Source: Eledone cirrhosa (lineage: Eukaryota). From it: 64,000 nt of DNA. Below the pieces are notes generated by a model, which made no database searches, was not told where the DNA came from, and worked only from the letters and a program-made list of their open reading frames with translations. Within the stretch, counting starts at the first letter, position 1. Each line of letters starts with the position of its first letter. Location: positions 10,168,001-10,232,000 of the forward strand of contig OZ024750.1 of NCBI GenBank assembly GCA_964016885.1. Reading direction: 5' to 3'. Shown here one piece after another: positions 47,801 through 50,800 of the stretch. The translations under genes and the position numbers were made by a program.

Positions 47801-50800
47801 TGTCCATGCCAACTCCTGTCTACTGCCGAATTTTAGGTGAAGAATTGGAGGAAAAACTCCTAATATTGAATCAAGGCCTAAAAGTTAATCTACTAAGCTG
47901 AAAGTTTTATTTAGAAGGAAAGAAATGTTTGGGAAATGGTTGTGATCAAATGGACATTGATGCTTATTTGTGAAGTGTGATATTGCATGGTAGTTAGACA
48001 AGAGCCAAGACAGGAAGTGTGAATATGGAGGGTGTGCAAAGGTTGGAAAGAAATGGTATGAGCATGCTCTATTGGATGTGTTGCATTAATGACGGAGCAG
48101 AAGTGAGATATGAAAAGAAAATAAGCTCTACAGGAATAAGTTGGAGTCTACAAAAGGGAAGACTGCACTAATAACGTTATGATACATATGAAAGATGGTA
48201 GTTGGGTGAAGAAAGGTCAAGCAATCCAAGTGGAATGAGTTTGCAGAAGAGGAAGACCAAGGAAGTGGTGGTGAGGGTTAATTTCACAATATTGAACCAC
48301 TTCGAAGAGATACTAGTTGATTGCAACAAGTAACAAGATCCTGTTCAATTCATGCCAGCAACATAGATAAAACAGATATAAAATGATAGATTTATTGAAC
48401 TATTTTGCTATTGTATGAAATGTGTGTGTTCTGTTAGCATTTTGAGGATACTGGACTTATGAATGAAATTTGTACTGAACTTAGGAATGAGACTTGTACA
48501 TTTCTAGTAGAATTGTAGCTTTCCAAATATTGCTGTAGTGTTGTCTGTATTGTGTATTACTATATGAAATTGCTAATATGTGTGTCAATATACTCTGAAC
48601 CAAATATTGAACACCACTTCATTAGAATTAAATTCACTACTTCATTAACGAATATCAGATTTTTTTTTTGTTTTTATCTTTCATTAGATTGTCATTATTT
48701 TTGTTTGCTTTTCCCCATTTTCTTTTTTCCTCTTTTTTTTTTATTTTAAAATACTATAATGTGATGTTAGTGATGTGACCATCTCACCATCTTGCAGATG
48801 TTCAGTTCTGAAATTGTGAGCCATTATGGAATCTCTCAGTACCCTGAAGATGATGAGGATGAGGTAGAAAGAAGCTTGTCCTGTGTGTGTTGGAATGATA
48901 TTGATTTAGACTTAGGTCTGCCTGCTTTAACAGGCATTAATTAGACATGACTTTTCCAGAAATCTGGCCATTTTAACTTTCTACTAAACTTTAGATGATA
49001 ACAATTGTAAGATAAATACATCTTTAGATTTGACAAAATCTGATGTTTCAATCAGAAGTATATTATCAAAATATATATTTTTAGAATCAATATTTTCTCT
49101 GGAGTGGGGGTAAAATGTTGTAATTTCTCACTATAGTAACAGAACACTCCTTATGTCTTCAATATTTCACTGTTTTTATATAATATTTCATTATTACCGT
49201 TGTTAGTGAAATTTTGTATATCAAAAAATATTTATATCTAAAAATGGAATTGCTAATTTGTTTTTGAAAACGAGTCACTTTGACTTCTTAAAAGATGAAA
49301 TTTCTTGATGTCACTACATTAGGATTACCAAAAAAAAAAAAAAGAAAAGATTTTTACCGAACCCTGCTTAGTAGGAAATTGTTTCCATAAGTTAATTCTC
49401 ACTAAATTCTTGTAAGTTATTCTGTGTAGAAAGTTAGAGCTAGTTTTCCGGAACAGACTTGTCCTATTGCTGTTGCCAATCCAGGCAAATATTGTTTTCA
49501 AATAACAATTGTTGTGAGACTGCTAATCTAATAAAACCATTTGTTAATATGATAATTCTTTACTTTAAGAATTTAACCATTTTGTTTTTCAGCATTTTGC
49601 CGACCTATTATTCCCAATTGTATATTAAACCATTTGTCTGCTGCAAAATATCATCATTATTACTATCTTTATTATCAGTAACTTATCAATTTAATTTGGA
49701 GTGTTTGTATCAATCATTTGTGGAAGTATTCCTCAGTATTCTTTCAGGAAATGTTACCATATTTAAAATGGTGGCTATCATCTGAAACCTCTCTCTATTA
49801 CTCTTTCTCTCTGATTGTTTCTATAGCTTTGAACTTTTGTTCAGTGAATTCTTTCATTTTTGCTCACTCTTTTGTTTCAACCTATAGTCTTTCTGCTACA
49901 TTTGTGTATTTTTAGTACTATAACAGTTTGGTGGGTCAACAATACTTAGCTTACTTGGGTAGTAGGATACTAAAGGATATTGTTACTTAGCTTACTAAGG
50001 TAGGGTTGGTACTGAAGCTAGATTTAACCAATAGAATCCATCTTGCAGAAGTTTGTTGGTGAAACAGAAAAATGAACAAGGAGCAAAAATCTCAGTAACT
50101 AAAAGACAGGCTTTCCTTAACCTGCAATGTTTTTTCTCGTAATTGAAATGTCTTGTATATTGACTATTTTGTTTCCACCCTGCCCCAACTCATTAGGTTT
50201 AGAGATTTCTTTTATTAAAAAAACATGAATGTCACAACAGGTTTATATTATTAACACTTTATAATTCTCATGAATATTAGAGATATTGTCATTAAGTGGA
50301 AAAGTATTCTAGTTTGACTGTTGTATGTAATATTCAGCATAGATTATTCTATAGTGATGTGAATTTGCTGGATTTTGAGAAGTTTGAAGTTAAAGGCTTG
50401 TGATTAGAGACTCTGAGTCAAGGTTTATTGGGTTAGGGACAGACAATTTTGTTATTTCTTTCAATGAAATATATATAGGAAATAAAAAATAAATAAACAA
50501 ACAAACAATTACGCCATCTTTATATTTAGTGAACCAGTTCTATTTATGACTTCTGTAGAATTCTGTTACATAATTTTTGGCAAAACTGGTATTTAAAAAA
50601 AATTATTTATATTCCAAAAACTTTTTATGTATATCTCTGTGTATTTTATTTTAATTCATCCTCCTATCTTTGTCTGACATAACTTGAAGGTTTTAAATTG
50701 TTTCATTGCCATAGAATAATTAAGTCATTTATATAATTTATTCTTCAATGTAATTTGTTAAATTCTCTGTTGATGGTATGTTATTTTTCTCTAATAAGGA

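Follow-up and report, generated by a model that had tools for sequence, protein, structure and literature searches.

What does the longest coding intron in the 5′ three quarters of the alpha-spectrin gene of Eledone cirrhosa carry, and what would the spectrin repeat that it interrupts gain from it? An earlier note, made from the letters alone, had proposed a 66-nt cassette exon within this intron, and we asked whether this exon is used, how widely it is shared and how it would change the encoded repeat.

The window, by which we mean the whole 64-kb stretch of DNA that was analysed, contains the 5′ three quarters of the alpha-spectrin gene on the + strand, and its exons are collinear with the Octopus bimaculoides alpha-spectrin protein (75–100% per tblastn piece). 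This ortholog comprises about 20 spectrin repeats, one SH3 domain and C-terminal EF hands according to Pfam; the gene continues past the window end, and the EF hands are therefore located outside the window. The spliced gene model begins at the start codon (26593), continues to the window end and has 46 introns with three cassettes counted in; of these introns, 41 are shorter than 1 kb. The host intron of the 66-nt cassette (47481–53681, 6201 nt, phase 0, number 32 when the cassettes are skipped) separates an exon ending in ERHQ from an exon beginning with EHRTEID at 53682. As the earlier note had stated (6.2 kb, most others under 1 kb), no other coding intron in the window reaches its length; the next-longest coding introns, of 5388 and 3920 nt, each contain one cassette as well. 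The coordinates of the cassette and its surroundings are collected in Table 1.

Table 1. Features of the 66-nt cassette and its surroundings in the alpha-spectrin gene (positions of the window).
Feature	Position	Strand	Remarks
Upstream constitutive exon	47381..47480	+	Helix A end, A-B loop, helix B start; ends ...ERHQ, phase 0
Cassette's upstream intron	47481..48797	+	1317 nt, GT..AG; joint in RNA run X4, not in DNA runs X1/X2
Long T-rich tract	48660..48747	+	From the sequence; about 50 nt short of the acceptor
C-rich acceptor CATCTCACCAT..TGCAG	48780..48797	+	11-mer also found in the acceptor of a second cassette (36 nt, at 56660)
Conserved cassette core, 12 residues	48798..48833	+	Helix-B-like copy of the next exon start, from invariance, register test and model
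Variable Pro/acidic cassette tail, 10 residues	48834..48863	+	Predicted coil
Cassette's downstream intron	48864..53681	+	4818 nt; weak donor GAG/GTAGAA; loose end behind 48864 matches the 53682 exon
Downstream constitutive exon	53682..53830	+	Remaining helix B, B-C loop, part of helix C; first 11 residues predicted by the model to be displaced upon cassette inclusion

A repeat or transposon origin of the cassette was rejected, as the 351-nt cassette region has only one full match in the 3.0-Gb genome, and is thus single-copy, together with one 54-nt match to the T tract. Elsewhere in the window there are very long simple repeats of the (TA)n type, interrupted by G or C (1–8400 and 57819–58392), and high-copy intronic repeats at about 42750–42930 and 44200–44530, where the contig depth is very high in both DNA and RNA runs, and the downstream intron of the cassette includes a purine-rich 38-nt minisatellite (51424–52016, 15.6 copies, 92% matches).

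The sequence agrees with the exon that had been proposed. The segment 48798–48863 is 66 nt long, comprises 22 stop-free codons in phase 0, and is bordered by cag/ATG at 48795–48800 and GAG/gtagaa at 48861–48869; a putative ESE-like purine run, also named earlier, is present. However, frame and length alone are little proof of an exon, because the same intron contains 213 stop-free in-frame AG..GT segments of 15–150 nt. Only one of the 213, the cassette itself, equals or exceeds the strength of the cassette's sites at both ends, a threshold that was thus defined by the finding. On the gene's own matrices these splice sites are weak, with the donor ranking 41st and the acceptor 42nd of 46, which is the expectation for an optional exon. 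The upstream donor GTTTGT, described before as weak, proved to be of intermediate strength (31st of 46 by the gene's matrix) and is also used by introns 22 and 46 of the spliced model. The long pyrimidine tract that had been placed upstream does exist, but it ends about 50 nt before the acceptor. A further AG (48769–48770) is located between the T tract and the cassette acceptor; it is the nearest upstream AG in the window, and its use would bring in an in-frame TGA.

Direct evidence for inclusion and skipping came from run X4, which represents one run of one sample with no tissue on record. It is not labelled RNA in its record and was identified as spliced RNA because 11 of its 15 displayed joints are GT..AG and agree with the spliced gene model. 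Across 47280–49259, the X4 coverage consists of exactly the upstream exon and the 66-nt segment, while the DNA runs X1 and X2 cross the same region unbroken and with no joint. One X4 contig (124 nt, depth 396.8) leads from the upstream exon through the cassette into letters matching the 53682 exon, and another (58 nt, depth 305.7) leads from the upstream exon to those letters directly. Both joints to the 53682 exon were read from the loose ends of X4 contigs, not from whole-intron alignment, and the flanks past each joint are 27–30 letters, below the 31-letter bridging rule; this is presumably the length that a two-way branch in a 31-mer assembly gives. The contig depths correspond to roughly 56% inclusion, a crude value from the contigs of one sample. 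Looking for the 47480–48798 and 48863–53682 junctions, as the earlier note had advised, thus yielded both the included and the skipped form, and the situation that it had named as speaking against the exon, direct 47480–53682 junctions only and no conserved in-frame insert, is not what we found. With included and skipped RNAs, AG and GT ends, a preserved frame and DNA that carries no joint, 48798–48863 is, with near certainty, a real and expressed cassette exon.

The same exon is found in the relatives of Eledone. Its 22 residues are identical in eight of the 15 listed Octopus isoforms in RefSeq/UniRef (O. bimaculoides and O. sinensis; e.g., XP_052834596.1 and XP_036356519.1) and absent from the other seven. 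In a homolog set of 426 proteins, gathered by full-length searches and cluster look-ups, the junction was readable in 411, and 200 of these carry an insert there; these counts are not independent, as many isoforms come from one species and one search targeted inserts. Holders of the insert include molluscs, a brachiopod and, among the arthropods, insects, decapods, brine shrimp, spiders and horseshoe crabs; isoform B of Drosophila melanogaster alpha spectrin (NP_001261286.1) has a 32-residue insert at the same junction. None of the 35 rows from amphioxus and vertebrates shows an insert there, which is in line with the earlier remark that no vertebrate insert is known in this repeat. No insert was present among the listed rows of Owenia (2), Helobdella (1), Lineus (4), Tubulanus (1), Scolopendra (2) and Folsomia (2). 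A search limited to proteins of at most 2000 residues gave the insert in 0 of 120 matches, a blank due to fragments and skipped isoforms, and the absence of homologs that it suggested was overturned by the full-length searches.

The inserts consist of a constant front and a variable tail. The first 12 residues are invariant in all 20 distinct mollusc inserts, covering cephalopods, gastropods and bivalves. The tail varies in gastropod and bivalve inserts, whose total length is 22–34 residues; the cuttlefish insert has a longer acidic tail than Octopus, and that of Lingula measures 26 residues with an acidic tail. Inserts of insects, decapods, brine shrimp, spiders and horseshoe crabs are mostly 14–17 residues long, and those of flies 20–33. 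Among 81 distinct inserts, E5 is found in 78, I/L/F6 in 78, Y10 in 69, G11 in 78 and I/V12 in 65, and Drosophila inserts lack Y10 but retain the helix pattern. Two Timema gene models (P0511 and P0523) with unrelated letters at the junction, probably mis-predictions, are counted in both the 200 and the 81. Four bivalve isoforms (P0152, P0155, P0288 and P0301) have 14–31 extra residues ahead of the core; this extension closes with LQ and points to an alternative acceptor further upstream or to an additional exon.

Short alternative exons are seldom shared even between insect orders (PMC8797185). That this one has been retained at a single junction all the way from octopus to fly points to selection for a function in a central protein of the cytoskeleton. 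The cassette is already contained in automatic annotations and database isoforms of many species. Our literature search, whose coverage excluded subscription journals and bioRxiv supplements, returned no description of the exon, of its homology across phyla or of its structure; an older report on the fly isoforms could exist, and the cassette is annotated, though apparently unstudied.

Which part of the insert is conserved also bears on what it might do. The tyrosine of YPEDDEDE, the loop proposed before as a possible phosphorylation, protease or partner-binding site, occurs in only two of the 20 distinct mollusc inserts, both from cephalopods; it cannot be the conserved function, and we rejected it as a conserved site. 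The conserved tyrosine is the earlier one, in SHYG, which is the residue retained in 69 of the 81 inserts and which ends the modelled helix of the insert. This residue may have a phosphorylation or docking role.

The spread of the exon across protostomes had been overlooked in the earlier note, and so had its likeness to the beginning of the next exon. The first 11 residues of the insert resemble the start of the next exon in the same register, with 3 of 11 identities for the mollusc core, 5–8 of 11 for arthropods and up to 8 of 11 for insects; at the DNA level, the mollusc core matches the next exon in 14 of 33 bases. Y10 and I/V12 are common to mollusc, Lingula and arthropod inserts, while the next exon has A10 and T12 at these places. 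Residues that are shared across phyla and absent from the presumed source favour one origin, and the exon very probably goes back to one partial duplication of the next exon's start that predated the split of molluscs and arthropods and was followed by losses or missing annotation. A single origin requires such losses or annotation gaps on account of the insert-free annelid, nemertean, centipede and springtail rows. The same patchy absence would be expected if the mollusc, brachiopod and arthropod exons had arisen by repeated independent duplications, and the low DNA likeness and the very different tails (14–34 residues in total) would suit these as well as an insert that is a tolerated, near-neutral spacer. 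Nevertheless, independent duplications leave the shared derived Y10 and I/V12 unexplained, and a near-neutral spacer does not agree with a core that is invariant over cephalopods, gastropods and bivalves, so that we consider both very improbable. In the scorpion protein P0505, a 14-residue insert is combined with a downstream segment that diverged from the usual EHRTEID start, an observation that bears on which copy is constrained.

The host repeat is the twelfth full repeat and directly precedes the repeat matching the Drosophila structure 2SPC, which we take to be 'repeat 14'. A fly repeat 14 structure is mentioned in PMC3401230. The host is thus repeat alpha-13 when the SH3 domain is counted, and the junction falls in its helix B, both as previously proposed. 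With a register matrix built from 208 other spectrin repeats, in which positions 2, 6, 9 and 13 after the junction are mostly hydrophobic or His/Asn, the octopus core was found to place F, I and H at 2, 6 and 9, which are the buried helix-B positions. The core scored 3.7 bits versus 5.3 for the native segment, and insect inserts scored 2.5–7.4 versus 5.3. All 13 scored inserts beat their shuffles (P 0.0008–0.017), with all other offsets lower, although the core and the native segment are both far under typical repeat scores (mean 14.9, sd 3.6).

Structure prediction was performed with AlphaFold on a fragment of the O. bimaculoides protein; the run with the insert used 34 sequences, was done once with no coordinates inspected, and gave five models with mean pLDDT from 88.6 down to 75.4. 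In its numbering the insert begins at residue 152 and the native segment at residue 174. A helix predicted at 140–161 passes through the core to its tyrosine (pLDDT 85 over 151–160), the tail is coil, residues 165–176 are below pLDDT 50, and the native segment appears as a short low-confidence helix (175–181) followed by coil, after which the helix resumes at the next Phe. Without the insert, helix B is broken once, at residue 160, nine residues into the downstream exon, at pLDDT 96–97. According to PMC3401230, helix B has a central bend, for which a role as an unfolding hinge has been proposed, and the break in this model is the known bend. A fold search with the insert model returned ordinary spectrin repeats, the best being 3FB2, a solved human repeat without the insert, and it does not distinguish which segment is packed.

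The earlier note had pictured the insert as a flexible loop breaking helix B, a picture that does not fit its first 11–12 residues, which are conserved, match the helix-B register and are modelled as a continuing helix. These models favour, with moderate confidence, a helix swap in which the core replaces the middle of helix B and the native segment is extruded as a loop at the bend, though AlphaFold may merely prolong a helix already begun. On inclusion, the core, with F2, I6 and H9 at the buried positions, would extend helix B as far as the bend that it has naturally; a loop of about 24 residues would follow, made up of the Gly, the acidic tail and the native 11-residue segment, before the helix resumes at the following Phe. 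The three-helix bundle would stay folded and gain a loop at the hinge, which would soften repeat alpha-13 or present a surface for docking in those cells where the exon is included.

The remaining form of the earlier picture, that native helix B keeps its packing and the insert forms a loop over its entire length, its core serving as a short binding or phosphorylation motif around the SHYG tyrosine on an acidic loop, appears rather unlikely to us. A core that is invariant in all 20 mollusc inserts could equally be a partner-binding motif, Y10 is widely retained, the native segment scores slightly above the core on the repeat matrix, and the residues that some bivalve isoforms have ahead of the core would interrupt a continuous helix. 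A tyrosine-regulated cleavage insert in a nearby repeat of vertebrate alphaII-spectrin provides a precedent (PMC3249148). Against it, the best model packs the core as a helix and leaves the native segment uncertain, the conserved positions coincide with the buried helix-B positions, and Drosophila retains the helix pattern and not the tyrosine. It is also conceivable that both registers are populated, the repeat folding in two alternative frames with a balance shifted by force, phosphorylation or ligand. The two segments do score alike on the matrix in octopus and in insects, insect inserts approach the native segment most closely in sequence, and a short helix is still predicted for the displaced segment; yet a second conformation was not observed directly, the layout considered being that of the best model, and conservation of the native segment is uninformative here because the skipped isoform requires it anyway. 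We regard such an equilibrium as quite unlikely. Taken together, the locus is best read as an optional 66-nt exon, probably an ancient partial duplicate of the next exon's beginning, for which both RNA forms, frame, position, conservation and likeness were observed and which, by the models, probably replaces the middle of helix B in alpha-13 when included.

Several known systems resemble this cassette in part. Vertebrate alphaII-spectrin (SPTAN1) also has short in-frame cassettes in spectrin repeats of the same gene, and three splicing events of it are named in PMC3249148. However, the 5-residue insert of vertebrates is situated two repeats further on, at a place occupied in octopus by a different 12-residue cassette. 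The vertebrate insert bearing calmodulin, calpain and caspase sites is likewise an additional Tyr-containing segment close to the midpoint of the chain, but it comprises 35 residues in alpha-10 by the numbering of PMC3249148, is likened here by description and not by sequence, and differs from the octopus insert, in which the tyrosine of the acidic run is cephalopod-only.

In mutually exclusive tandem-duplicated exons, the alternative exon is homologous to its neighbour and has the same phase. The cassette resembles its neighbouring exon in the same phase and register as well, but only its first 11–12 codons are copied, and a transcript with the cassette has both copies, since the inclusion contig continues into the 53682 exon. 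Because the neighbour is retained whether the cassette is spliced in or skipped, the copy is an addition to the RNA and not a substitute.

Another such system is the short neural exons controlled by eMIC/Srrm234, with which the cassette has in common weak splice sites, a UGC beside the acceptor and UCUC in the tract (PMC8797185); by residue counts, its arthropod versions are mostly 42–51 nt. The fly eMIC microexon median is 31 nt (PMC8797185), and the octopus cassette, at 66 nt, is not a very short exon. Nor does it have a long AG exclusion zone, its AG-free run being 25 nt versus a gene median of 40. In searches of the fly exon table of PMC8797185, we found no alpha-Spec row.

The second cassette in the window, at 56660–56695, has 36 nt and 12 residues, is present in six Octopus isoforms, and sits exactly where vertebrates have the 5-residue insert. 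PMC8797185 lists a 15-nt mouse Sptan1 exon among the eMIC-dependent ones, and from its length we infer that it encodes this 5-residue insert. Among the 46 acceptors, four end in TGCAG and five contain TCTC, and only those of the 66-nt and 36-nt cassettes have both; the acceptor 11-mer common to the two occurs twice in the window versus 0.03 expected. These features, together with the eMIC-dependent mouse exon, hint at neural co-regulation of both cassettes, while the short AG-free run, the missing fly row and the lack of genome-wide enrichment argue against it. The pattern CATCTCACCAT..TGCAG has eight matches across the genome versus 37 for its reversed control, and we rejected it as a general splicing code; six matches are outside the gene, three of which share one repeat-like flank, and none adjoins a clear short exon.

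Further optional segments were observed in and beside the window. An 18-nt cassette microexon (29258–29275, YPIEKL), present in some Octopus isoforms, is located in the second-longest coding intron. Beyond the 3′ end of the window, near residue 2170 of P0248 (short isoform), Octopus and cuttlefish isoforms have an optional 6-residue segment similar to the TYLLDG that fish and the AYLLDG that amphioxus have in this position. At 53590–53625, about 70–90 nt before the downstream exon, there is a sequence that looks like the cassette acceptors (TCTCACCA...TACAG followed by GT sites), and the loose ends of the X4 RNA gave no sign of its use.

The helix swap can be tested directly, because D. melanogaster has the exon in its isoform B and the human repeat without the exon has been solved (3FB2). 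A bolder possibility, which we think unlikely, is that the exon is a protostome-wide, splice-controlled switch, in which a second helix-B copy before the hinge would let alpha-13 fold in two frames, and tension or phosphorylation of the conserved tyrosine would flip it. If so, either the insert or the native amphipathic segment would be exposed, and the spectrin lattice would be tuned in the cells that include the exon, perhaps neurons. If instead the helix swap is correct, splicing would alter the hinge of one spectrin repeat through a competing copy of a helix segment, and not through a plain loop.
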